From IMG/VR virus record IMGVR_UViG_3300013110_000375, positions 1 to 55,501 of that record: a stretch of DNA of 55,501 bases; one strand, written 5' to 3'. A program made the position numbers and the translations under genes. This document shows positions 3,281-51,592 of this stretch, piece by piece; positions within the stretch are counted from its first letter, which is position 1; every line of letters starts with the position of its first letter. The stretch is from a virus. Its lineage: Duplodnaviria; Caudoviricetes. Below the pieces are notes generated by a model, which worked only from the letters and a program-made list of their open reading frames with translations, was not told the DNA's origin and made no database searches.

Positions 3281-3309
3281 AATATATCCTATTTATTGTT
3301 CTATGTCAA
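3281..3309 (-). promoter_or_regulatory. Sigma70-type promoter
   Basis: TTGACA-17 nt-TATATT upstream of 3261. Confidence 0.65.
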
Positions 3310-5260: not shown

Positions 5261-5288
5261 ATTATAACTTATTATTTGCGTTTGTCAA
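5261..5288 (-). promoter_or_regulatory. Sigma70-type promoter
   Basis: TTGACA-16 nt-TATAAT upstream of tdk. Confidence 0.7.
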
Positions 5289-6917: not shown

Positions 6918-7547
6918 TTATCGCTTAACGAGCCTTATTCTAATTTTATTCTCACCAAGTTTCCTTGGAAGTGTTTCTTCGCCTGAAGTTGGTTCTCCAA
7001 AGGATTGTTCTATCTCTGGTGATATTTTAGAAATTTGAGGCTCTGGTGGAGGAGGAGGCATGGCAGACATTAAGTCTGGGTCACCTATTAAGTCTATAAC
7101 CTTTTTCTTAACTTTCGTTTCTACAGCAGGGAGGTCATAGTGTCCTGATTCTCGCCCAATCTCATAATCGGCATCATGGCTCTTCCAAGCGCGAATTCTA
7201 CCAATAGAAGACTTAGTTTGTGGATCTACAACATACATCTCCACAAGAGTTTTAAAAACTTCTTCAGCTTCCAATTCTGCCTTTGGGGCGTGCCTCCTTG
7301 ATTTTTCAACAATGCTGAATAAATAGGCGAACCCAGCCAATTTAAAAATTTCATTTAACAGCATGTTTTTCTGATAAATAATTTCTCCTCGATTGTCTGG
7401 ATTGTTCGGGTCCAAACTGAGGAGAGGGCCGAAAGATTCAACATTTTCTTTGTATGCTTCAGACATCCAATCTGCCCTTTCTACAATTACAGTTCCTTTA
7501 TAGTCTCTCGCAGTGCTAACAAAACGCTGTGTTTTTCCATTGCTCAT
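6918..7547 (-). CDS. Hypothetical protein with poly-Pro tract
   Basis: 209-aa ORF with AGGT SD and CTATTTA motif upstream. Confidence 0.65.
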   Translation of the reverse strand: MSNGKTQRFVSTARDYKGTVIVERADWMSEAYKENVESFGPLLSLDPNNPDNRGEIIYQKNMLLNEIFKLAGFAYLFSIVEKSRRHAPKAELEAEEVFKTLVEMYVVDPQTKSSIGRIRAWKSHDADYEIGRESGHYDLPAVETKVKKKVIDLIGDPDLMSAMPPPPPEPQISKISPEIEQSFGEPTSGEETLPRKLGENKIRIRLVKR

Positions 7548-15422: not shown

Positions 15423-16382
15423 TTATCTTATGATATTTTTGAGAATATTCCATAAGTCCGTGAAATTTAAAGAACCTTGCCCATCTTCAAAAAGCATTTT
15501 TTTAAAATTTAGACCACTACCTAAACCTTCAAAATTGGCAAGGTTGTAGTTAATTGACTCTTTATTAATCAAAGAAAATGATGGGTCATATAATTGCATC
15601 AAATTGTAGTTTTGTTCCACTACGGTTCTCTGATTCAAAATATTCTTATGAATGACCATCTTCTTCTCTATTTTTTCGCATATTTCAAAGATTTCGTCTG
15701 AATCGACCTGTCGAGATTCCGAGAGGAATGAAAAATTTTTGGCGATGGTTTTTAACCCTACCCTGTCCACTCCTTTGAGGTTATCTGAGGGATCTCCCGC
15801 TATTGCCCTTGCCAATGCAAAGTTGTTGGGATGAATGCCGAACCTGTATGTTATCGATCCTTCTGTCTCCAACTCATCTTGGATTGGTCGATAGACAGCA
15901 ATGTTTTCATCACATAACTGAAAGAAGTCCTTATCACTTGATACTATAATCTTTTGCCAATCTTTATAATGATTGTGTTTTGCAACATAGGCGATTATAT
16001 CGTCGGCCTCAACGCCATCATAAGAAAGCTGCATAACAGGGAGTTCGTTCAAATATTCATGAAGTCGAACTTGCTGATAAATGCGATTCTGTTCTTGTTG
16101 TTTTGGGTTTAGTTCAACCATGCGGCGGTTAAAGCGAAGAGGTTTGCGACCAGCTTTGTAGTCCTTATTTTGAGACTTCTTTCTTTGAGAGCCGCCAATG
16201 CCGTCCCAAGCAATAATTACTTCATGGGGGCGGGTTTTCCTCATTAGTTTTTGAAACGATTTAAGAAACCCAATGGAGCCGCCAACGGGGATGCCATTAT
16301 TATCTAAAGTTGGATTAACAACATAGTTTCTTATAAAAAGATTTAATGCGTCAATTATTAATAATCTGTTTTTCTCGGTCAT
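15423..16382 (-). CDS. 5'-3' exonuclease / flap endonuclease (T4 RNase H, Pol I N-terminal family)
   Basis: LIIDALN, AWDG, YKAGR, EADDII, SSDKDF, GDPSDNLKGV.RVG. Confidence 0.93.
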   Translation of the reverse strand: MTEKNRLLIIDALNLFIRNYVVNPTLDNNGIPVGGSIGFLKSFQKLMRKTRPHEVIIAWDGIGGSQRKKSQNKDYKAGRKPLRFNRRMVELNPKQQEQNRIYQQVRLHEYLNELPVMQLSYDGVEADDIIAYVAKHNHYKDWQKIIVSSDKDFFQLCDENIAVYRPIQDELETEGSITYRFGIHPNNFALARAIAGDPSDNLKGVDRVGLKTIAKNFSFLSESRQVDSDEIFEICEKIEKKMVIHKNILNQRTVVEQNYNLMQLYDPSFSLINKESINYNLANFEGLGSGLNFKKMLFEDGQGSLNFTDLWNILKNIIR

Positions 16383-17383
16383 ATTTTCTCCGGAGAGTTT
16401 GAAAGGAATACATGTTTAACAAACGAGTTAGATCTTCCTATTTGATCTGTTATAAAGCTTGTCATTTTGTCATAGGAGTCAAATGTTTTAAGTTCGTTAT
16501 TGTGCTTCAATTTATATATTCCAAGTTTTCTTATAATATCACATTTGTTAACAACCAAATGAGTGGTCCCTGTTTGTCTCACGGCCTCAATCATCATGTC
16601 CAGATTGAGCCAGTTACAGTGTCTTCGTCTGCCCGTTGTAACGCCGAATTCTTGCCCTATATCGCCCAAGGCGGTCAAATCCGGGTCTTTAAAGAGTTCA
16701 TCGGGGAACAATGGGTCCACACCAGAACGGGTGTCATATATCTTAGATATGCCCCATATATGGCGAATCTTTTGCGGGGGAAAACCAAGGGAACAAGCAC
16801 CATACGGCAATGTTGTCGATGACGTTACATAGGGATAGTTGCCTTGATCAACATCAAGGTAATAGCCTTGGGCCCCTTCACACAATATTCGACCAGATAG
16901 TTTTTCATCCCAAAGTAATTTTGAAGGGAGAATGTCTCTTGCCAATTGGCCTGTTCTTGCCATTTTATCGGCATAACATGGTGCGATTCCCTTTGATGTT
17001 GTTCCAAGTTTTTTTGCTAAACTTTTCTTATCTTTATTAATATGTTTATCGGTTACAATATGTGCCCTTGGTGATACTTTAACAAGAGTTCTATCAAAAC
17101 CGCTTCTCTCAAGGTAATCTAACTCTTCTATTAATGAATCAGGATGGACCACGCACTGTGGACCAATAATAGATTTAATCCCGTGGAAAACCCCACTAGG
17201 AACCAGATGAGTTTTATATTTTTTTCCTCTGAGGAAGACGGTATGTCCTGCATTATTTCCCCCTGCCCAACGACATACATAGTCGTAGTTTCCTTTTTTG
17301 GTCAAATGGGAAGTTACCTTTCCTTTTCCTTCGTCTCCCCATGAAATTCCGAACACAACATCAACGTATTTAATTTCTTTCAT
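16379..17383 (-). CDS. purA: Adenylosuccinate synthetase, short type (likely start MKEIKY at 17383)
   Basis: WGDEGKGK, GGNNAGHT, EGAQG, YPYVTSS, EFGVTTGRRR; GGAGG SD. Confidence 0.93.
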   Translation of the reverse strand: MKEIKYVDVVFGISWGDEGKGKVTSHLTKKGNYDYVCRWAGGNNAGHTVFLRGKKYKTHLVPSGVFHGIKSIIGPQCVVHPDSLIEELDYLERSGFDRTLVKVSPRAHIVTDKHINKDKKSLAKKLGTTSKGIAPCYADKMARTGQLARDILPSKLLWDEKLSGRILCEGAQGYYLDVDQGNYPYVTSSTTLPYGACSLGFPPQKIRHIWGISKIYDTRSGVDPLFPDELFKDPDLTALGDIGQEFGVTTGRRRHCNWLNLDMMIEAVRQTGTTHLVVNKCDIIRKLGIYKLKHNNELKTFDSYDKMTSFITDQIGRSNSFVKHVFLSNSPEKI

Positions 17384-17404
17384 ATGGACCTCCGTTGCTT
17401 CTAT

Positions 17405-17432
17405 ATTATAACATATTCTCACGATTTGTCAA
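17405..17432 (-). promoter_or_regulatory. Sigma70-type promoter
   Basis: TTGACA-16 nt-TATAAT with extended -10. Confidence 0.75.
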
Positions 17433-17434
17433 AT

Positions 17435-17461
17435 AAAAAACCCCGAAAATTCGGGGTTTTT
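17435..17461 (-). terminator. Intrinsic terminator after recA (bidirectional form)
   Basis: AAAAACCCCGAA-TT-TTCGGGGTTTTTT. Confidence 0.85.
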
Positions 17462-17480: not shown

Positions 17481-18566
17481 TTATTTTTTATATTTATCAA
17501 TAAATTCTTCTTCAAGAATTGACACGACAACTGATCTAAAATCTTTATCTTTTAGTTTGTTGATCCAGTCTTTAGACTGAAATTTATATTCTTTTCCATC
17601 TTTACCAAAGACTGATTTCCATGCGCCAGAAGCTTTAAATCTATCTGATTTAATATTTGACAAAGCGTGAAGCCATGATTCTTCATCAGCAATACGAACT
17701 TTATCGCCACCCCACATCACATTAAAAATACATTCTCGACCATAACCAGCAGATCGAACCTTTTCAATACGAGCCTTAACCTCAGAGCCAATCTGTGTGC
17801 CGTTTTCATCCAATATGCGGCCTGCTTTTGCTTTGCGTCGAGTCAACCAAATACGCAAAGCGGTATGATAGACAATTGATTTTCCACCGGGTGTGAAATA
17901 TGGTGTTGTCATCATCTCTGCTGGTCTGCCCATATTAGTTTTTAACTGATTGAGCAAAAGAAGTGTTGACTGAGTTCTTTCCAAGGGAATCTGCAATTTC
18001 TTAAAAGCCAATGAAAGTACCCTTGGTTTAACTGCCATAGATGATTGGGGGTTGAAATCGCCCTCAACATCTCTTTCGGTTGGAGTTGCCGCAACAGAAT
18101 CCCAAATAAACAATAATTGTTGTTCTGGCCATTTTTCCATTGCGAACTCTATTATTCCAAGAACCTTTTCAACTGAAATTGCTTGAACATAAAGAACCTC
18201 TTTCATATCACAACCAGCCTTCTCTAAAAAGTCTCTATCGACTGCTGCTTCAGCATCAAAATAGATCACCTTCATTCCCATCTTGTTGGCGTTAGCTGCT
18301 ATAACGGTTGCCATAAACGATTTACCAGCAGATGAAAGACCTGCAAGTTCTGTTATTCTGCCAACTGGAATCCCGGCTTTTTTGCCGGGATATATTGACC
18401 AATCCAGCAAAGATGAACCAGTTGGAATCCAATCTTTAATATGTGCTGGGTTGTCATGTTCTAAATCATAAGCCGCTTCAATACCAAGCTTCTTATTTAT
18501 TGCCTTCACCATATCGGTGGTATCAATCTTTCCCGGCTTAAGAGCCATTTGTAATAGTTTTCCCAT
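17481..18566 (-). CDS. recA: RecA/UvsX-family recombinase
   Basis: IPTGSSLLD, GIPVGRITEL, Walker A GLSSAGKS, WDSVAA, LNQL, TPGGKS. Confidence 0.92.
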   Translation of the reverse strand: MGKLLQMALKPGKIDTTDMVKAINKKLGIEAAYDLEHDNPAHIKDWIPTGSSLLDWSIYPGKKAGIPVGRITELAGLSSAGKSFMATVIAANANKMGMKVIYFDAEAAVDRDFLEKAGCDMKEVLYVQAISVEKVLGIIEFAMEKWPEQQLLFIWDSVAATPTERDVEGDFNPQSSMAVKPRVLSLAFKKLQIPLERTQSTLLLLNQLKTNMGRPAEMMTTPYFTPGGKSIVYHTALRIWLTRRKAKAGRILDENGTQIGSEVKARIEKVRSAGYGRECIFNVMWGGDKVRIADEESWLHALSNIKSDRFKASGAWKSVFGKDGKEYKFQSKDWINKLKDKDFRSVVVSILEEEFIDKYKK

Positions 18567-19152
18567 TTAACCTCCAATAATTTTCTAAATCTTGCCTATT
18601 ATTAATTTTTTGACCATGTTCTTTAATATATTTCCAAGGAATTTTAGGATCATTCAATGAGGTTCCCACCTCTATTGTATAAAATAAACGTCCAAGATCC
18701 TCTTCATCTATTTGACCTTCCAACAAAGGAAGTATCTTTGTTTTCGCTTCGATAGAGCCGAAGTATTTTTTCCTACCTTCATTAAAAGGTTTTACAACTT
18801 TTTCTTGAATCCAAGGATCTAAAGCATCAAGGGTCAGTGCATAATGTTCATTAAAATTGCCATTCCATTTGGCACCAGAATATTCACTAAAGACAAATAT
18901 ATTTGTTTTTTTCTTCCATTCTTCTACCTTTTTAAGGCCGAAGCCCCTTGCCGTACTTACATCATTTTTAGACTTAAGTTTATTTTTGCGAATAACAAAT
19001 TCTGGTTTTGTTTTAAGTTCTACTGTAACCTCTTCATTATCAATAAATGTTTTTGCGTCTGGCCAATATTGGTTACCTCTGTTGGTTTCTGAAAAATCAG
19101 AGAGGCCAAAATGTTTAATTTGGGCCTTTTCTCTAACATCATCTTGTGCCAT
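18538..19152 (-). CDS. PvuII-family PD-(D/E)XK restriction endonuclease-like protein (orphan)
   Basis: PDA...VELKT catalytic motif, VST, IFVFSEY. C-terminal LNDPKIPWKYIKEHGQKI closely matches the PvuII C-terminus (INNPKIPVKYVMEHGTKI, recalled). Confidence 0.75.
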   Translation of the reverse strand: MAQDDVREKAQIKHFGLSDFSETNRGNQYWPDAKTFIDNEEVTVELKTKPEFVIRKNKLKSKNDVSTARGFGLKKVEEWKKKTNIFVFSEYSGAKWNGNFNEHYALTLDALDPWIQEKVVKPFNEGRKKYFGSIEAKTKILPLLEGQIDEEDLGRLFYTIEVGTSLNDPKIPWKYIKEHGQKINNRQDLENYWRLNGKTITNGS

Positions 19153-19171
19153 TTTATCCTCCATAAAAAAC

Positions 19172-19203
19172 GAGGCATCTGTAACCCATGCCCCCCTGCG
19201 GTC
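19172..19203 (-). ncRNA. Cis RNA H-type pseudoknot, copy D
   Basis: GACC-GCAGG-GGGGCAU-G-GGUU-ACAG-AUGCCUC, then U6 and the GGAGG SD of the nuclease gene. Confidence 0.7.
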
Positions 19204-19208
19204 TTAAC

Positions 19209-20147
19209 TCATTGGTTAAGTTTCTTTTTAAGATGCTTTTTATATCCTGAGAAACAGGATGACATCTTATTTTTACCAATAGTCGAACGCTGTGGGCTTT
19301 GATAGAATGACTCTATTATGCCCAAGGCAACCGACTCTTCGTGCATATTAACAACACTGCCGCCTCTTTGTTTGAAGTCGGAGGCTACATTTCTTTGCTT
19401 ACCTCTGGCGACAGACATGGCCCCGATGAAAGACTCAAAAGCACTTGAAATACTCTTGTCGCCAAGAACACCAGTATTTTTGAATACATGGGCCAAACCA
19501 CCAAGTAACTCATTTTGAGCCACCTTTTCATTAGTCCAAGTTTTTTGGATCAAGCTAGAGGCATTAATAACTGGACCTAAACCTGTTTTTTGAACAGTGT
19601 TTCTAAATCCGTTAATCTTGACTCTCCAAGCGGTGTTATTGTGTAACCCACTTGTTGCACCAACAGAGCTACCTTTTTCACCTGTTCCAAGCGACACACA
19701 CAAGCCAGACTTTGCCAAGTTACGGCTATCCTGCATTGCACTTTGGTCGCCAGAATGAACTTGGTGAACAAATACCTCATCGGAACTGAGTGATTTTCGA
19801 CCAGTTTTATTAATAATAACAAAGAGTTCACTTATCTGTTTTAAACTATCAACTTTGATAACTTGAACTGGCATTGTTTTAGCGTTTGGAAAAGCTTTTT
19901 TCCACAACTGGCGGCGATGGTCGCCGTCGAACAACAATCTTGTTCCGTCTGGTAGTTCTGCTACCAGTGGTGGTTGCCATAGGCCCCGATGAAACCCACC
20001 AACACAACTAATATATTTCTTAATTGTTTGGGATTCCGTTTTCCTATTAAGATAGGAAGGAATGTTAACATCTATATCAATAACTTGGACACTCTTGTTC
20101 AAGTTGTTGACTACGAAGCTTCCATTTCCATATAATTTTATTGACAT
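19209..20147 (-). CDS. ParB/Srx-like (DGQHR/DUF6551-type) protein
   Basis: PPLVA...LFDGDHRR...ELFVIINKTGRKSLS. Confidence 0.75.
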   Translation of the reverse strand: MSIKLYGNGSFVVNNLNKSVQVIDIDVNIPSYLNRKTESQTIKKYISCVGGFHRGLWQPPLVAELPDGTRLLFDGDHRRQLWKKAFPNAKTMPVQVIKVDSLKQISELFVIINKTGRKSLSSDEVFVHQVHSGDQSAMQDSRNLAKSGLCVSLGTGEKGSSVGATSGLHNNTAWRVKINGFRNTVQKTGLGPVINASSLIQKTWTNEKVAQNELLGGLAHVFKNTGVLGDKSISSAFESFIGAMSVARGKQRNVASDFKQRGGSVVNMHEESVALGIIESFYQSPQRSTIGKNKMSSCFSGYKKHLKKKLNQ

Positions 20148-20176
20148 TTTAACCTCCATTTTAGTTTCATATCAAT

Positions 20177-20209
20177 TTGGCACATTTCAACCCGTGCCTA
20201 CTCACGGTG
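20177..20209 (-). ncRNA. Cis RNA H-type pseudoknot, copy C (divergent)
   Basis: ACC-GUGAG-UAGGCAC-G-GGU-UGAAAU-GUGCCAA; same spacing as copies B and D. Confidence 0.5.
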
Positions 20210-20219
20210 TTTTTTTATT

Positions 20220-20327
20220 TTATTCAGCTTGGACTGCTGAATCTTGATCTTCTGATTGCACTTCTCCAGTGTCTTCAGATTTATCGCCACAAGCTATAAG
20301 CATTGCAGCTAACACAAAATACTTCAT
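20220..20327 (-). CDS. Tiny acidic lipoprotein, 35 aa (below ORF-track cutoff)
   Basis: MKYFVLAAMLIACGDKSEDTGEVQSEDQDSAVQAE; GGAGG SD; lipobox LIAC. Confidence 0.75.
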   Translation of the reverse strand: MKYFVLAAMLIACGDKSEDTGEVQSEDQDSAVQAE

Positions 20328-20346
20328 GTCTCCTCCATAAAAAAAT

Positions 20347-20380
20347 GAGGCATCTGTTCAAGCCATGCCTCCCTGCGCTT
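20347..20380 (-). ncRNA. Cis RNA H-type pseudoknot, copy B
   Basis: AAGC-GCAGG-GAGGCAU-G-GCUU-GAACAG-AUGCCUC, then U7 and GGAGG; P1 covaries with copy D. Confidence 0.7.
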
Positions 20381-20391
20381 CTAAAAATGAA

Positions 20392-20429
20392 GGGGCGCAA
20401 TTTATCTCCGCCGCGCCCCATGTGGCGGA
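20392..20429 (-). ncRNA. Cis RNA H-type pseudoknot, copy A
   Basis: UCCGCC-ACAU-GGGGCGC-GGCGGA-GAUAAAUU-GCGCCCC: perfect 6-bp P1 and 7-bp P2, just after the ssb stop. Confidence 0.75.
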
Positions 20430-20434
20430 TGGTC

Positions 20435-21196
20435 CTAACTGTTCATGAATTTATTAAACGCAGCATCTACCTTATTTTCGGTATTATACTTTTGCGTTTC
20501 CACAGAACGAGACTCAGAGGTTGCATCGGAGGAAAGATATTCATCCAACAAAGCTTTAACTTCTTGAGTTGTAAGTCGTTGGAACAAAGTCTCAATTTCT
20601 GGGATAGATTCAACAAGTTCCTCACAATTCGCAACAGCCTCATCACATAACGCCGATGGTCTACGGCGCGGCTTTAGTTGGGTTTTGGGGAACGAGCCGG
20701 GAGTTCCGGGAACAGTATAAGTTAGGACCAAATCGGTTCCTGTCTCTGGATGTGTAATATCACCGTAATCTGGGTCAAGGACATATCCAAGAAGAGTTTC
20801 ATATGCCATCTTGCCGTAAGACCAGACCTTAACACCGTCTTTTTCTTTTCCTCTCACAAGAATCGGTGAAAAGTAACGCTTACGAACAAACAGCTTCTTT
20901 GCTTCACGCTTGGCAGTATCATCATTGTTTGAAACGCCATCTCTCCAAAGAGATGAAGCGAAATCACAAATGGGACATTCTTCGCCGTGATTCTTCTTAG
21001 GACAAAGAATTCCGGGATTTCTACCTACGTTATAATGAAAGTGATACTCTTTAAATGGGTCGCCATCTTCAGTGGGCATGATACGAATTGTTTGATCGCC
21101 CTCTTGTGGTCGCCATTTTGTACTGTTTTCACTTTTTTTACCTCCGTTCTTGGAGGCTTCTAGTTTTGCTCTCATTGCTTCTAAATTAATAGCCAT
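20435..21196 (-). CDS. T4 gp32-like single-stranded DNA-binding protein
   Basis: W.P.EG...IRIMP, Zn site FH...CPK...CPIC, YGDITHPETGTDL, acidic tail. Confidence 0.9.
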   Translation of the reverse strand: MAINLEAMRAKLEASKNGGKKSENSTKWRPQEGDQTIRIMPTEDGDPFKEYHFHYNVGRNPGILCPKKNHGEECPICDFASSLWRDGVSNNDDTAKREAKKLFVRKRYFSPILVRGKEKDGVKVWSYGKMAYETLLGYVLDPDYGDITHPETGTDLVLTYTVPGTPGSFPKTQLKPRRRPSALCDEAVANCEELVESIPEIETLFQRLTTQEVKALLDEYLSSDATSESRSVETQKYNTENKVDAAFNKFMNS

Positions 21197-21245
21197 TTTT
21201 TTACTCCTTTGTTGTTTGATCTTTATTGGGGATACACCCTAAAGT

Positions 21246-21265
21246 CGGGGGGCAAAAGCCCCCCG
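21246..21265 (-). promoter_or_regulatory. 5' leader hairpin of the ssb mRNA
   Basis: CGGGGGGC-TTTT-GCCCCCCG, about 10 nt after the -10 box, with no U-tract. Confidence 0.65.
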
Positions 21266-21275
21266 CTCATGTTAT

Positions 21276-21304
21276 ATTATAGCATTATTTTTGCATATTG
21301 TCAA
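21276..21304 (-). promoter_or_regulatory. Consensus sigma70 promoter for the ssb-recA operon
   Basis: TTGACA-17 nt-TATAAT with extended -10 TG. Confidence 0.85.
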
Positions 21305-21589: not shown

Positions 21590-21618
21590 AATATAGCCGC
21601 TTTTGACTATATTGTCAA
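21590..21618 (-). promoter_or_regulatory. Sigma70-type promoter
   Basis: TTGACA-17 nt-TATATT. Confidence 0.65.
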
Positions 21619-25009: not shown

Positions 25010-26383
25010 TTAGTCAAAACCATGTTCAAAACCGGCCCCTGAAGACTCATCAAATTCTTCAATTGTCGTCACTGGGGGCCTACGGTTTGGACGGGTTGGC
25101 CTACGTGATGATTCATCTTTATTTGATTGTGATAGGGGTCCGACTTTAGTCGCAGGTTTGATGTGTGAATTCCTTCTTTTTAGTTTTTTCGCGAGTGAGT
25201 TTAAACCACCCGGCTTAGATTTATATGTTTTTCTAAACTCTTCATTAATATATCCTATATCTTCTTGGTTGTCAATAGAAAAATTACTATTTTTTGCTTT
25301 TTGTATGATTCTATTAATTTTTGGCCTTGAAATAACGCCATTTTCTTCAATGTTTCTTACTTGCACATAAAAATTCAACCAATCATGATGTGAATATTCT
25401 TGATCAAGAGTTTCCATTGTGACTGGTCTTCTTAGAAACATATTAAAAATAGTATTATTTTTACAATTGCAGCCCAACTCTTTTTCAGACACAAAAGAAG
25501 AGGCAAATCTATTATAATATTCAAGAACCAAATCTTTTAATAATAAAATATCTTTATTATATGCAATCTCAAATCTTTTTTCAAATAGACTTTGTGGTGA
25601 ATTTATAATATACGGCAATCGCAAAGAATATTTCATCATAGGTGCGGATAATACATCAGCAACTAATACCCAAGGCGCATTATGTGAAATCAAAAAACCG
25701 TGTTCCTTGCAAATATTGAGATAAAATGGATATATTGGATTATCTAAAAACGATTCTTCTTTTATTTTATCATCATCAATTGGAAGATCAGCTATACTTA
25801 TCGCCAGTCCGGATGTAAAGATGCTGGATAATCTTGATCGTTGCCACGAAGTAAATGTCAAAGGTGCAAGTTTTTTATTGTCTCTTATAAAAAAATGTAA
25901 GTTATTAATAAAGTCTTTTATTTTTAAGACATTCTGTTTTTTATTTTGAGAGACCAAATAATCGTTTATATATTCATCCATCAAATTTTCTATGTATTTA
26001 CTATATTCAACAAAAGGATCAACAAATCCACGGACAGCCTTAATATGAGATAAGAATGGATCATTTGTTGGTATAATGTTGGTTCTACAAGCTTGATCGA
26101 ATTTTTTAACAAGATCGGAAAAAGCATCCGCAACAAAATCTATTGCTCTAGGATTAATATCAGAGGTTTGAATCGAGGTCAAATATTTCATGTATGATTC
26201 TATTGGATATACTGTATCCATTCTTGTATTAATACATCCATACATTGAGCTTTCAACAAAATTTAAATTTCTAACTTGATCGGGACCGGATGGGGTATCA
26301 TAGGCTGTCAATCTATAATCGGCTCTTTCAAAAAAAAGATCAATTGTAGAGTCTATATCATTTTTTCCATAAAAATTGGTCAT
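25010..26383 (-). CDS. Hypothetical protein, 457 aa
   Basis: Long ORF with GGAGG SD, contiguous with the baseplate genes. Confidence 0.8.
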   Translation of the reverse strand: MTNFYGKNDIDSTIDLFFERADYRLTAYDTPSGPDQVRNLNFVESSMYGCINTRMDTVYPIESYMKYLTSIQTSDINPRAIDFVADAFSDLVKKFDQACRTNIIPTNDPFLSHIKAVRGFVDPFVEYSKYIENLMDEYINDYLVSQNKKQNVLKIKDFINNLHFFIRDNKKLAPLTFTSWQRSRLSSIFTSGLAISIADLPIDDDKIKEESFLDNPIYPFYLNICKEHGFLISHNAPWVLVADVLSAPMMKYSLRLPYIINSPQSLFEKRFEIAYNKDILLLKDLVLEYYNRFASSFVSEKELGCNCKNNTIFNMFLRRPVTMETLDQEYSHHDWLNFYVQVRNIEENGVISRPKINRIIQKAKNSNFSIDNQEDIGYINEEFRKTYKSKPGGLNSLAKKLKRRNSHIKPATKVGPLSQSNKDESSRRPTRPNRRPPVTTIEEFDESSGAGFEHGFD

Positions 26384-36206: not shown

Positions 36207-36230
36207 CCCCCCAATCAAGAATAAATAGTT
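36207..36230 (-). promoter_or_regulatory. Putative late promoter plus SD; 24-bp exact repeat of 44110..44133
   Basis: AACTATTTATTCTTGATTGGGGGG occurs identically at both sites. Confidence 0.7.
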
Positions 36231-41417: not shown

Positions 41418-41450
41418 TAAAAAGTTCTCCTTTAAATTAATATCTCACAG

Positions 41451-41459
41451 TAAATAGTA
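41451..41459 (-). promoter_or_regulatory. Putative late promoter motif (TACTATTTA) upstream of the sheath gene
   Basis: CTATTTA recurs before structural genes (45101, 48139, 51584, 52417, 36222, 44125). Confidence 0.6.
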
Positions 41460-44101: not shown

Positions 44102-44151
44102 TCATAAAACCCCCCAATCAAGAATAAATAGTTACATCTAATGTAAAGCTA

Positions 44152-45052: not shown

Positions 45053-45114
45053 ATTAATAATCTCCTTAAAATCTTTGCACTTTCAATGTGCGATCAATAG
45101 TAAATAGTATGGTG

Positions 45115-48104: not shown

Positions 48105-48175
48105 TAATAACAACTCCTAATAATACTATTATCATCAATAAATAGTGTTTTATTGAGGAAAAACACTTTTAATGT

Positions 48176-51562: not shown

Positions 51563-51592
51563 TAAAAGTCTCCATTTTCTTAATAAATAGTT

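Follow-up and report, generated by a model that had tools for sequence, protein, structure and literature searches.

The stretch of DNA analysed here, hereafter called the window, is a 55.5-kb fragment (55,501 nucleotides, nt; about 30% complete) of a tailed phage genome, IMG/VR record IMGVR_UViG_3300013110_000375, with all long open reading frames (ORFs) on the minus strand. Between its genes for a gp32-like single-stranded DNA-binding protein (SSB) and for a UvsX/RecA-like recombinase, four elements, A to D, follow successive gene ends. Comparison with relatives indicates that three of the four, A, B and D, are real, evolutionarily maintained RNA pseudoknots. B and D can be assigned to a sequence-conserved family of H-type pseudoknots of about 36 nt, the CAGG pseudoknot family, which is widespread in phages and apparently undescribed. 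A is best placed in a separate class, conserved in structure only and located right after the gp32 stop codon, and C is read as a decayed copy of the CAGG pseudoknot. The best overall explanation, to which we give a probability of about one half, is that the SSB-to-recombinase unit carries two kinds of pseudoknot that act in cis on the downstream cistrons.

Results and Discussion

Pseudoknots A, B and D in the window

Element A (20392 to 20429, minus strand) starts 5 nt past the SSB stop codon. Its 6-bp stem S1 joins UCCGCC (20429-20424) to GGCGGA (20412-20407), and its 7-bp stem S2 joins GGGGCGC (20419-20413) to GCGCCCC (20398-20392). Loop L1 has 4 nt, L2 has 0 nt and L3 has 8 nt and is rich in A, as is usual for H-type pseudoknots. 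The element runs into a U-rich tail, UUCAUUUUU (20383 to 20391, minus strand). Element B (20347 to 20380, minus strand) is recognized by covariance models as a full member of the CAGG family; its stems are AAGC (20380-20377) with GCUU (20363-20360) and GAGGCAU (20371-20365) with AUGCCUC (20353-20347). The tail of B (20332 to 20346, minus strand) consists of A, U7, AU and the GGAGG Shine-Dalgarno sequence of a 35-aa ORF. Element D (19172 to 19203, minus strand), likewise a full family member, starts 5 nt past the stop codon of a 316-aa ORF, pairs GACC (19203-19200) with GGUU (19186-19183) and GGGGCAU (19194-19188) with AUGCCUC (19178-19172), and continues into G, U6, AU and the GGAGG Shine-Dalgarno sequence of the next ORF (19158 to 19171, minus strand). 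At the second position of S2, D has G instead of A, paired as G-U; B and D show every other feature of the family.

The initial annotation had placed every strand of A to D correctly on the minus strand, apart from the end of C, which it had set at 20177, 2 nt too far (the end lies at 20179). Its view that each gap after ssb holds a pseudoknot is upheld in three cases (A, B and D). The fourth, C, is read as a decayed copy, and the junction between the last accessory ORF and uvsX is an overlap, hence has no gap and no element. The loops GCAGG and ACAG shared by B and D, the compensatory change in S1 (a swap of G-C for C-G), and the U7 or U6 tract followed by GGAGG are all confirmed.

The loops closed by the S2 hairpins measure 14 nt in A, 11 nt in B and 9 nt in D. 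A scan for consensus terminators, which allowed loops of up to 8 nt, missed all three for this reason. Nested folding of the single sequences yields the S2 hairpins only, with insignificant z-scores between -0.5 and -1.0, and the case that the elements exceed chance therefore rests on their relatives. This comparative support is very strong for B and D and strong for A, and consists of synteny only for C.

Three other roles for these sequences were considered and rejected. Programmed frameshifting or read-through at the end of the SSB gene lacks a slippery site, and the 10-codon extension that it would add in frame is not conserved. A switch in which the 3' strand of S2 would pair with the real Shine-Dalgarno sequence offers only 4 bp over an 11-nt loop, against the 7 bp of S2. 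A late promoter in the L3 loop of A is disfavoured, as the candidate late motif of the window (see below) is another word and A-rich L3 loops are common in H-type pseudoknots.

Structure and covariation of the CAGG pseudoknot family

The family consensus has a covarying S1 of 3-4 bp, an L1 of the form R-C(A/G)GG, S2 composed of GAGGCAY and RUGCCUC, an L2 of one purine that agrees with the first purine of L1, and an L3 ending in AYAG. Copies were collected in two ways. Among loci related through the SSB, 174 of 181 candidate stretches were confirmed, and the best 80 of the 174 contain 27 distinct B/D-like copies, B and D included. At least 120 stretches came from viral contigs scanned with a pattern that specified only some of the L1 and S2 positions. 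From all loci, 114 distinct cores were chosen by criteria that were blind to S1.

Read in one fixed register, 113 of the 114 cores can form the first S1 pair, all 114 the second and 112 the third. Shuffling (1000 rounds) left on average 93.0, 83.6 and 52.9 cores paired, and never more than 99, 96 and 70. The pairing is realized by 17 triplet types, such as ACC/GGU, CCC/GGG, CGC/GCG, AGC/GCU, GGC/GCC, CGA/UCG and CCA/UGG. The initial annotation had made the pseudoknots depend on S1 covariation in homologs; such covariation is present, since S1 pairing lies far above that in the shuffles.

An alignment made with MAFFT (alignment A2, 110 rows, excluding four copies with a very long L3) gives the same picture for both helices. 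The two-helix structure accounts for pairs in 95.2% of the cells, compared to 83.3% after shuffling, and both sides have changed in 153 cells; none of 500 shuffles attained the observed values. Controls with slid register were paired in 26-48% of the cells. At pair 4-22, A-U occurs 51 times, C-G 47 times, and G-C and U-A 4 times each. G-U pairs are tolerated, for example nine times at the S2 pair 15-40, which fits folding of the sense strand only. Four copies carry hairpin insertions of 20-25 nt in L3. The first base of L1 and the single base of L2 (columns 7 and 19 of A2) are G and G in 67, A and A in 31, and A and G in 14 of the 114 cores, which suggests a non-canonical purine-purine pair stacked at the junction of S1 and S2.

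Seventeen further rows were found without the scan pattern; 15 of them have variants of S2, some compensatory, and all 17 retain C(A/G)GG. In the flanks (n = 163), A occupies position +1 in 88% of the cases and U positions +4 to +8 in 48-66%, and nothing else is conserved. The 15 nt past the motif are 71% A+U and 12% G, in a tract of only about 25 nt that has no UUAA(A) repeats. Of 147 tails, counted over 12 nt, 61 have at least 6 U and 41 (about 28%) at most 3 U.

A first covariance model scored B at 51.6 bits and D at 49.1 bits in the window. A second model, R2, built without rows from the window, still scored B at 51.3 bits (E 5.8e-14) and D at 45.9 bits (E 2.5e-12). In the whole 55.5 kb, R2 found nothing besides B and D under E 0.01, and left A and C unmatched at E ≤ 1. 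B and D thus bear out the suggestion of an unnamed family of phage cis-acting RNAs, but A to D together represent two classes and one relic instead of a single family.

A class of pseudoknots conserved in structure only

In most relatives, the order S1, L1, S2, S1', L3, S2' is kept past the SSB stop codon, with stem sequences that differ widely. Examples of S1 are UCCGCC/GGCGGA, CCGCU/AGCGG, AGUGU/ACACU, AAGCC/GGCUU, UCGCC/GGCGA, ACGG/CCGU, GGUC/GACC and AAGUC/GACUU. A parser of our own assigned 53 distinct sequences to this class, here called class A. In the median, S1 begins 8 nt past the stop codon and has 4 bp, L1 has 2 nt, S2 has 7 bp, L2 has 0 nt (range 0-1 nt) and the A-rich L3 has 8 nt.

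The upstream flank was swapped among 29 S1 classes. The mean S1 score was 12.41 for the native combinations and 3.28 for the swapped ones, and none of 20000 permutations attained the native sum. When the chimeras were freely re-parsed, a score of at least 11 was reached by 23 of 29 natives and by 102 of 812 chimeras. A per-sequence shuffle test (median p 0.11) was discarded, as its greedy choice of S2 swallowed S1', including that of the window copy. A MAFFT alignment of the class A copies put the helices out of register and was excluded from the pair counts. The tails of class A have at least 6 U in 10 nt in about 55% of the copies, and the subgroup of loci L019-L031 keeps both helices without a U tract.

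Element C and a probable insertion of two ORFs

Element C (20179 to 20208, minus strand) has stems of 3 and 5 bp, ACC (20208-20206) with GGU (20192-20190) and GGCAC (20198-20194) with GUGCC (20183-20179). It keeps ACC, GGCAC, GGGUU and GUGCC, has lost CAGG, ACAG and the outer pairs of S2, and has no U tract. Neither the first covariance model nor R2 matches it (cut-offs E ≤ 10 and E ≤ 1). Its site, past the same ORF end and an A-rich spacer, is the one at which loci L005, L007 and L014 have an intact copy, and this synteny points to C as a decayed copy.

In the closest complete relative, the order is SSB, A, small ORF, motif, uvsX. At precisely the site of this motif, the window contains two additional ORFs, with C to their left and D in the middle. 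A search of five related genomes for these ORFs gave no match, an empty answer that is weak for the tool used. It seems that the insertion of the ORFs took place at the motif.

Occurrence of the CAGG pseudoknot

The motif is rare: five genomes of about 185 kb contain 1, 0, 1, 2 and 4 copies, which are clustered where there are several. It starts in the median 6 nt past a stop codon (139 of 147 contexts) and ends in the median 25 nt before a start codon that is led by a Shine-Dalgarno sequence (128 of 147). A gp32-like gene lies within 4 kb upstream on the same strand for 98 of the 126 copies found by pattern. A uvsX gene lies downstream of 85 of them, immediately so in 30, and 22 have neither gene. 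The 121 distinct proteins encoded directly downstream include 41 RecA, 10 FKBP, 7 Hc1 and 3 UDG proteins, single cases of DNA polymerase, helicase, PhoH and thioredoxin, and a Holliday-junction resolvase identified via PHROGs; gp32 is not among the 25 families, of 35, that were listed for them.

In six of the 22 exceptions (L133, L148, L153, L191, L197 and L202), the gene just upstream of the motif encodes a protein of 182-225 aa, with an acidic tail in L191 and a Pro/Ala-rich tail in the other five. In L191 (4321-5953) and L197 (3735-5399), the gene for this SSB-like protein (OB fold, 182-212 aa) adjoins an ATPase-like gene, with a P-loop seen in L191; next comes a gene for DNA polymerase, as it does in L148. 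The AlphaFold model of the L191 protein (pLDDT 82) led in a fold search to PrgE of plasmid pCF10 (E 2.9e-5), which we take to be an SSB-like OB-fold protein, and then to other OB-fold proteins. The match comes from the fold search alone, as the profile of the protein gave nothing significant against PDB sequences; the result from hhalign is partly circular, since its target was one row of the profile. A language-model search provided DUF669 as a lead. In the accounts consulted, a role as SSB is inferred or demonstrated for DUF669 proteins (PMC4889955; PMC13687109), and the module of an ATPase-like and an SSB-like protein in L191 and L197 resembles the DUF669 and AAA recombination pair described in the latter (PMC13687109). 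Together with the gp32-like genes upstream of the motif, these L191-type neighbours suggest that it follows SSB genes of two unrelated families.

The consensus pattern was also run against cellular genomes, one for each of 185,579 species. Only nine matches of at least 44 bits were obtained, all on five contigs of metagenome-assembled genomes (MAGs); one of these is labelled as a 2.8-Mb chromosome, the others are 5.6-57 kb long, and some carry arrays. Locus L217 (1157-2150) has four copies in 1 kb before small genes, one of them for a CspA-like cold-shock protein, and L227 (445-1131) has three copies in 0.7 kb, each before a small gene. Just upstream of the first copy in L217 there is a 145-aa ORF that is Hsp20-like by eye. 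A blastn search of 50,697 GenBank phage records with the region and two subtypes of the motif found no match.

The SSB-to-uvsX transcription unit

The gene for the gp32-like SSB (20435 to 21196, minus strand; 253 aa) matches Pfam gp32 with E 7.8e-15 and PHROG 1192 with E 1.1e-25. It is preceded by a consensus sigma70-type promoter (TTGACA-17-TATAAT, perfect match; 21276 to 21304, minus strand). The UvsX/RecA-like recombinase gene (17481 to 18566, minus strand; Pfam RecA E 1.4e-33; PHROG 97) is followed by an intrinsic terminator with a short loop of 6 nt (CCCCG-AAUUUU-CGGGG and U6; 17435 to 17456, minus strand), which ends the unit, and by the next perfect sigma70-type promoter in the promoter pattern scan (17405 to 17432, minus strand). 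Between the SSB promoter and this terminator, promoter-like sites match at only 9-10 of 12 positions. With a perfect promoter before it, a terminator after it and no consensus-grade promoter inside, the interval from SSB to uvsX can be regarded as one transcription unit. The elements sit within this unit, which argues that they are not plain operon-end terminators.

Possible functions of the pseudoknots

Our best guess at the function, on the present sequence comparisons, is intercistronic attenuation or translational control that is possibly SSB-responsive, with the CAGG family probably tuning expression of the next gene. We infer that A, B and D act in cis on the mRNA, where they would set the amount made of each downstream cistron. 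A could be a pseudoknot-closed partial terminator or a 3' stabiliser that causes polarity after the abundantly needed SSB message. B and D could be operators just upstream of the next ribosome-binding site that are read by a trans-acting factor. The best candidate for this factor would be free SSB, nucleating on the pseudoknot and the U-rich tract as in the case of T4 gene 32. Free SSB, or another factor, would repress the next cistron until it is titrated away by single-stranded DNA, and the output of recombinase and replication genes would thereby be tied to the load of single-stranded DNA. The idea of an SSB operator derives from the layout of pseudoknot, U-rich and G-poor tract and ribosome-binding site, which repeats the logic of T4 gene 32, and gains circumstantial support from the placement of the motif after two unrelated families of SSBs.

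Several observations weigh against this interpretation. The same conserved core accompanies both SSB families. This speaks against sequence-specific reading by the SSB itself; a ligand, a host factor common to these phages or an activity intrinsic to the RNA would fit better. The leader of the SSB gene itself has no CAGG motif, and no copy is present in a related genome that is 92% complete. Genes with no obvious link to single-stranded DNA also stand behind the motif: those for FKBP (10 cases), Hc1 (7 cases) and a lipoprotein-like ORF. A, B and D all have a GC-rich stem and a good U tract, and simple partial termination could suffice in the window. Moreover, the scan pattern itself accounts for part of the L1 and S2 conservation among the copies found by pattern. 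The class A statistics come from our own parser and from 29 classes that are related by descent and thus not independent; they are strong, though of a less formal kind than the statistics for B and D.

The elements may be partial intrinsic terminators only, an unlikely reading in which S2 and the U tract would stop some polymerases after the abundant SSB message, S1 would close an over-long loop, and the sequence conservation of B and D would reflect recent spread or gene conversion of a handy module. It agrees with the 7-bp GC-rich stems that lead into U-rich tails (U7 in B, U6 in D, UUCAUUUUU in A), with the 48-66% U at positions +4 to +8 of the family and the at least 6 U in 10 nt of about 55% of class A tails, and with S2 being the minimum-free-energy structure in nested folding. 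However, 41 of 147 copies have at most 3 U in 12 nt, and in L019-L031 both helices are present but no U tract follows. Closing a loop would not call for the sequence conservation of L1 and L3, which extends across phages with unrelated SSB and polymerase genes. Furthermore, the motif is confined to SSB-proximal junctions and numbers 0-4 per genome, and short-loop terminators are found at other gene ends of the window. Since the unit must express uvsX, the tails often have few U, and the loops are conserved across unrelated replication genes, plain terminators are unlikely to be the whole story. It is improbable, to a greater degree, that B and D are a phage-only riboswitch aptamer, in which a ligand at the S1/S2 junction would stabilise the pseudoknot and alter termination or access to the ribosome-binding site. 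Compact riboswitches typically have this size, this H-type topology and such invariant loop nucleotides beside stems that covary; hairpin insertions are tolerated in L3, the purine covariation of L1 and L2 fits a structured junction, and the motif lies in the 5' untranslated region of the next gene. Yet there is no match to an Rfam riboswitch, the downstream genes have no common metabolic theme, and no alternative structure that competes with S2 is evident. Known riboswitch classes occur in cellular genomes, and good copies of the motif are on only five MAG contigs across those of 185,579 species. We would give equally long odds to the bolder proposal of a sensor RNA class exclusive to phages, in which the CAGG pseudoknot, as an aptamer or a very small catalytic RNA, would read a small molecule made in infection and switch on the recombinase, polymerase and nucleic-acid-chaperone genes behind the SSB gene; a nucleotide, a damage signal and a defence signal are candidate ligands.

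Two further explanations invoke RNA processing and DNA. The elements might determine mRNA processing or stability, as a block to exonucleases, an endoribonuclease site or a small self-cleaving RNA, and so divide the transcript into units of different half-life. In its favour, arrays of small genes have a copy of the motif between all neighbours (L217 with four in 1 kb, L227 with three in 0.7 kb), and copies stand directly past stop codons. The structure-only conservation of class A would suit a steric block; in T4, an RNase E site is described near the stop codon of gene 32, and the gene 32 mRNA as exceptionally stable (PMC3014915). This reading is nevertheless very doubtful, as a pure block needs no conserved loops and no known ribozyme family is matched. 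The self-cleaving classes that we know of are all larger than 36 nt. Finally, the elements could act at the DNA level, as repeats or single-stranded structures at which cassettes are swapped in the SSB-uvsX interval. The genes of this interval vary among relatives, each preceded by a copy, and the two extra ORFs of the window stand exactly at the motif site with the decayed C to the left and the intact D in the middle; in the source consulted, PeSL elements are said to mediate shuffling of this kind (PMC4122927). A primary role in DNA is the least probable of these possibilities, since covariation that preserves pairing, tolerance of G-U on one strand and a fixed sense orientation indicate selection on a folded transcript. 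No promoter consensus goes with the motif, and recombination between repeats could be a side effect.

The SSB and the recombinase need to be kept in proportion on single-stranded DNA. The pseudoknot occurs at junctions from SSB to recombinase and from SSB to polymerase, in well over a hundred contigs of uncultured phages and with two SSB families. This placement suggests a general device at the RNA level that orders the expression of replication and recombination genes. The RNA of about 36 nt shows unusually clean pseudoknot covariation and would be a new entry in RNA family databases; in synthetic biology, it could serve as a compact intercistronic part. For annotation, the lesson is that terminator-like hairpins in phage operons can hide a second conserved helix.

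Relation to known systems

The scan against Rfam 15, which the initial annotation had proposed, gave no family match on the elements, either for the window at the gathering threshold or for slices of 1601 nt and 106 nt at E ≤ 10. Five other loci with the motif gave no family match at E ≤ 1 either. All hits in these searches were at chance level. Membership of ykkC-III, preQ1, SAM-II and the known small ribozymes is thereby ruled out. The size, topology and conserved loop nucleotides are similar to those of the guanidine-III (ykkC-III), preQ1-I and SAM-II riboswitches, and the initial annotation had drawn the comparison to guanidine-III and SAM-II. This kinship is rejected, as no Rfam match appears at E ≤ 10 even on the 106-nt slice, the gene context is unrelated, and the cellular copies are limited to five MAG contigs. 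The motif strings were not found in the literature searched, nor was uvsX found there paired with a relevant pseudoknot; the single paper with both terms appears to be a report on a coliphage genome. Among the thousands of candidate RNAs that Fremin et al. (2023) describe from IMG/VR without naming them, 12 lie upstream of GP32, and the CAGG motif may already be one of the candidates (PMC10690425).

By concept, the operator of T4 gene 32 is the closest known system. In the account consulted, its pseudoknot lies 67 nt upstream of the start codon, nucleates cooperative binding of gp32 over an A+U-rich tract, and is perhaps the sole viral pseudoknot used for translational autoregulation (PMC3014915). 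The operators of T4, T2 and RB69 resemble the elements in being compact, stacked H-type pseudoknots that are linked to a phage SSB (PMC3014915). They are followed by an unstructured stretch into the ribosome-binding site (PMC3014915), to which the G-poor, A+U-rich tract past the elements may correspond. In contrast, the T4 operator is in the SSB gene's own 5' leader, and all four elements of the window come after the SSB stop codon and belong to leaders of other cistrons. They also have no UUAA(A) repeats and no sequence likeness to the T4 operator, and the SSB leader of the window has only a plain hairpin.

By context, the nearest relative is STAXI, for which Weinberg et al. (2010) describe tandem pseudoknots near genes for Ssb, topoisomerase, antirestriction proteins and integrase, often with UUCG tetraloops in the repeats; in that description no function was assigned, and whether RNA or single-stranded DNA is the relevant form was debated (PMC2864571). 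STAXI and the elements have in common that repeated pseudoknots stand beside SSB genes, but here the copies are separated by genes and located in phage contigs. No STAXI match was obtained with Rfam for the window and five other loci, with the STAXI model presumed, not confirmed, to be in the library.

By genome dynamics, the elements are closest to PeSLs, composite promoter-terminator motifs that are reported to mediate cassette shuffling in T4-type phages (PMC4122927). Like PeSLs, the elements are repeated between genes, border on small ORFs that vary, and stand where close relatives differ by insertions and deletions (PMC4122927). Unlike a PeSL, the elements have no early-promoter half (there is no consensus-grade sigma70 site beside A, B or D) and form a pseudoknot instead of a simple stem-loop, and CAGG copies number only 0-4 per genome and are confined to the vicinity of the SSB gene. 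Intrinsic terminators share with A, B and D the GC-rich stem that leads directly into a U tract. The differences are that the loops of 9-14 nt are tied upstream by a covarying second helix and that the elements are inside the unit.

Other features of the window

The lipoprotein-like ORF of 35 aa downstream of B (20220 to 20327, minus strand) is kept in relatives. The two extra ORFs are accessory genes with no assigned function. The first, of 316 aa (19209 to 20159, minus strand), is without a match in Pfam and NCBIfam and has only a weak one to PHROG 2558 (E 1.5e-4). Its homologue was not found in the five related genomes, which again is a weak answer for the tool used. The protein contains a DGDHRR stretch. 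The second, of about 204-208 aa (18538 to 19164, minus strand; probable start at 19152), overlaps the start of uvsX by 29 nt, and a homologue stands after element A in locus L038.

In the leader of the SSB gene (21197-21284, minus strand), a strong hairpin, GGGGGGC-UUUU-GCCCCCC, is followed by an A-rich, unstructured stretch that extends to the Shine-Dalgarno sequence. This leader may be the counterpart of the gene 32 operator in this phage.

The nearest cultured phage, Microcystis phage Mel-JY01, is distant, with 34.6% identity in the SSB and 31.4% in RecA. It keeps the order SSB, RecA, DNA polymerase I (locus L229, 53808-55723); the gap between SSB and RecA is 8 nt there and has no pseudoknot motif. 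The label 'T4-like' is only loosely apt for the phage of the window.

Perfect promoters of the type TTGACA-N16-18-TATAWT occur seven times in the window, all on the coding (minus) strand, compared to 0.14 expected. Transcription of the early and middle genes of this phage seems to depend on host sigma70-type promoters. They are at 891-918, 3281-3309, 5261-5288, 17405-17432, 21276-21304, 21590-21618 and 25247-25275. A candidate late-promoter motif is the word CTATTTAYT, which is present eight times on both strands together (1.65 expected) and seven times on the coding strand, at 7318-7326, 36220-36228, 41449-41457, 44123-44131, 45099-45107, 48137-48145 and 51582-51590. Six of its copies are seen 20-40 nt upstream of large, probably structural genes. 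Right after uvsX, there is an adenylosuccinate-synthase-like gene (16379-17422, minus strand; 334-347 aa), which scores 268.8 bits with the PurA model and 110.6 bits with the PurZ model, both under the cut-off.

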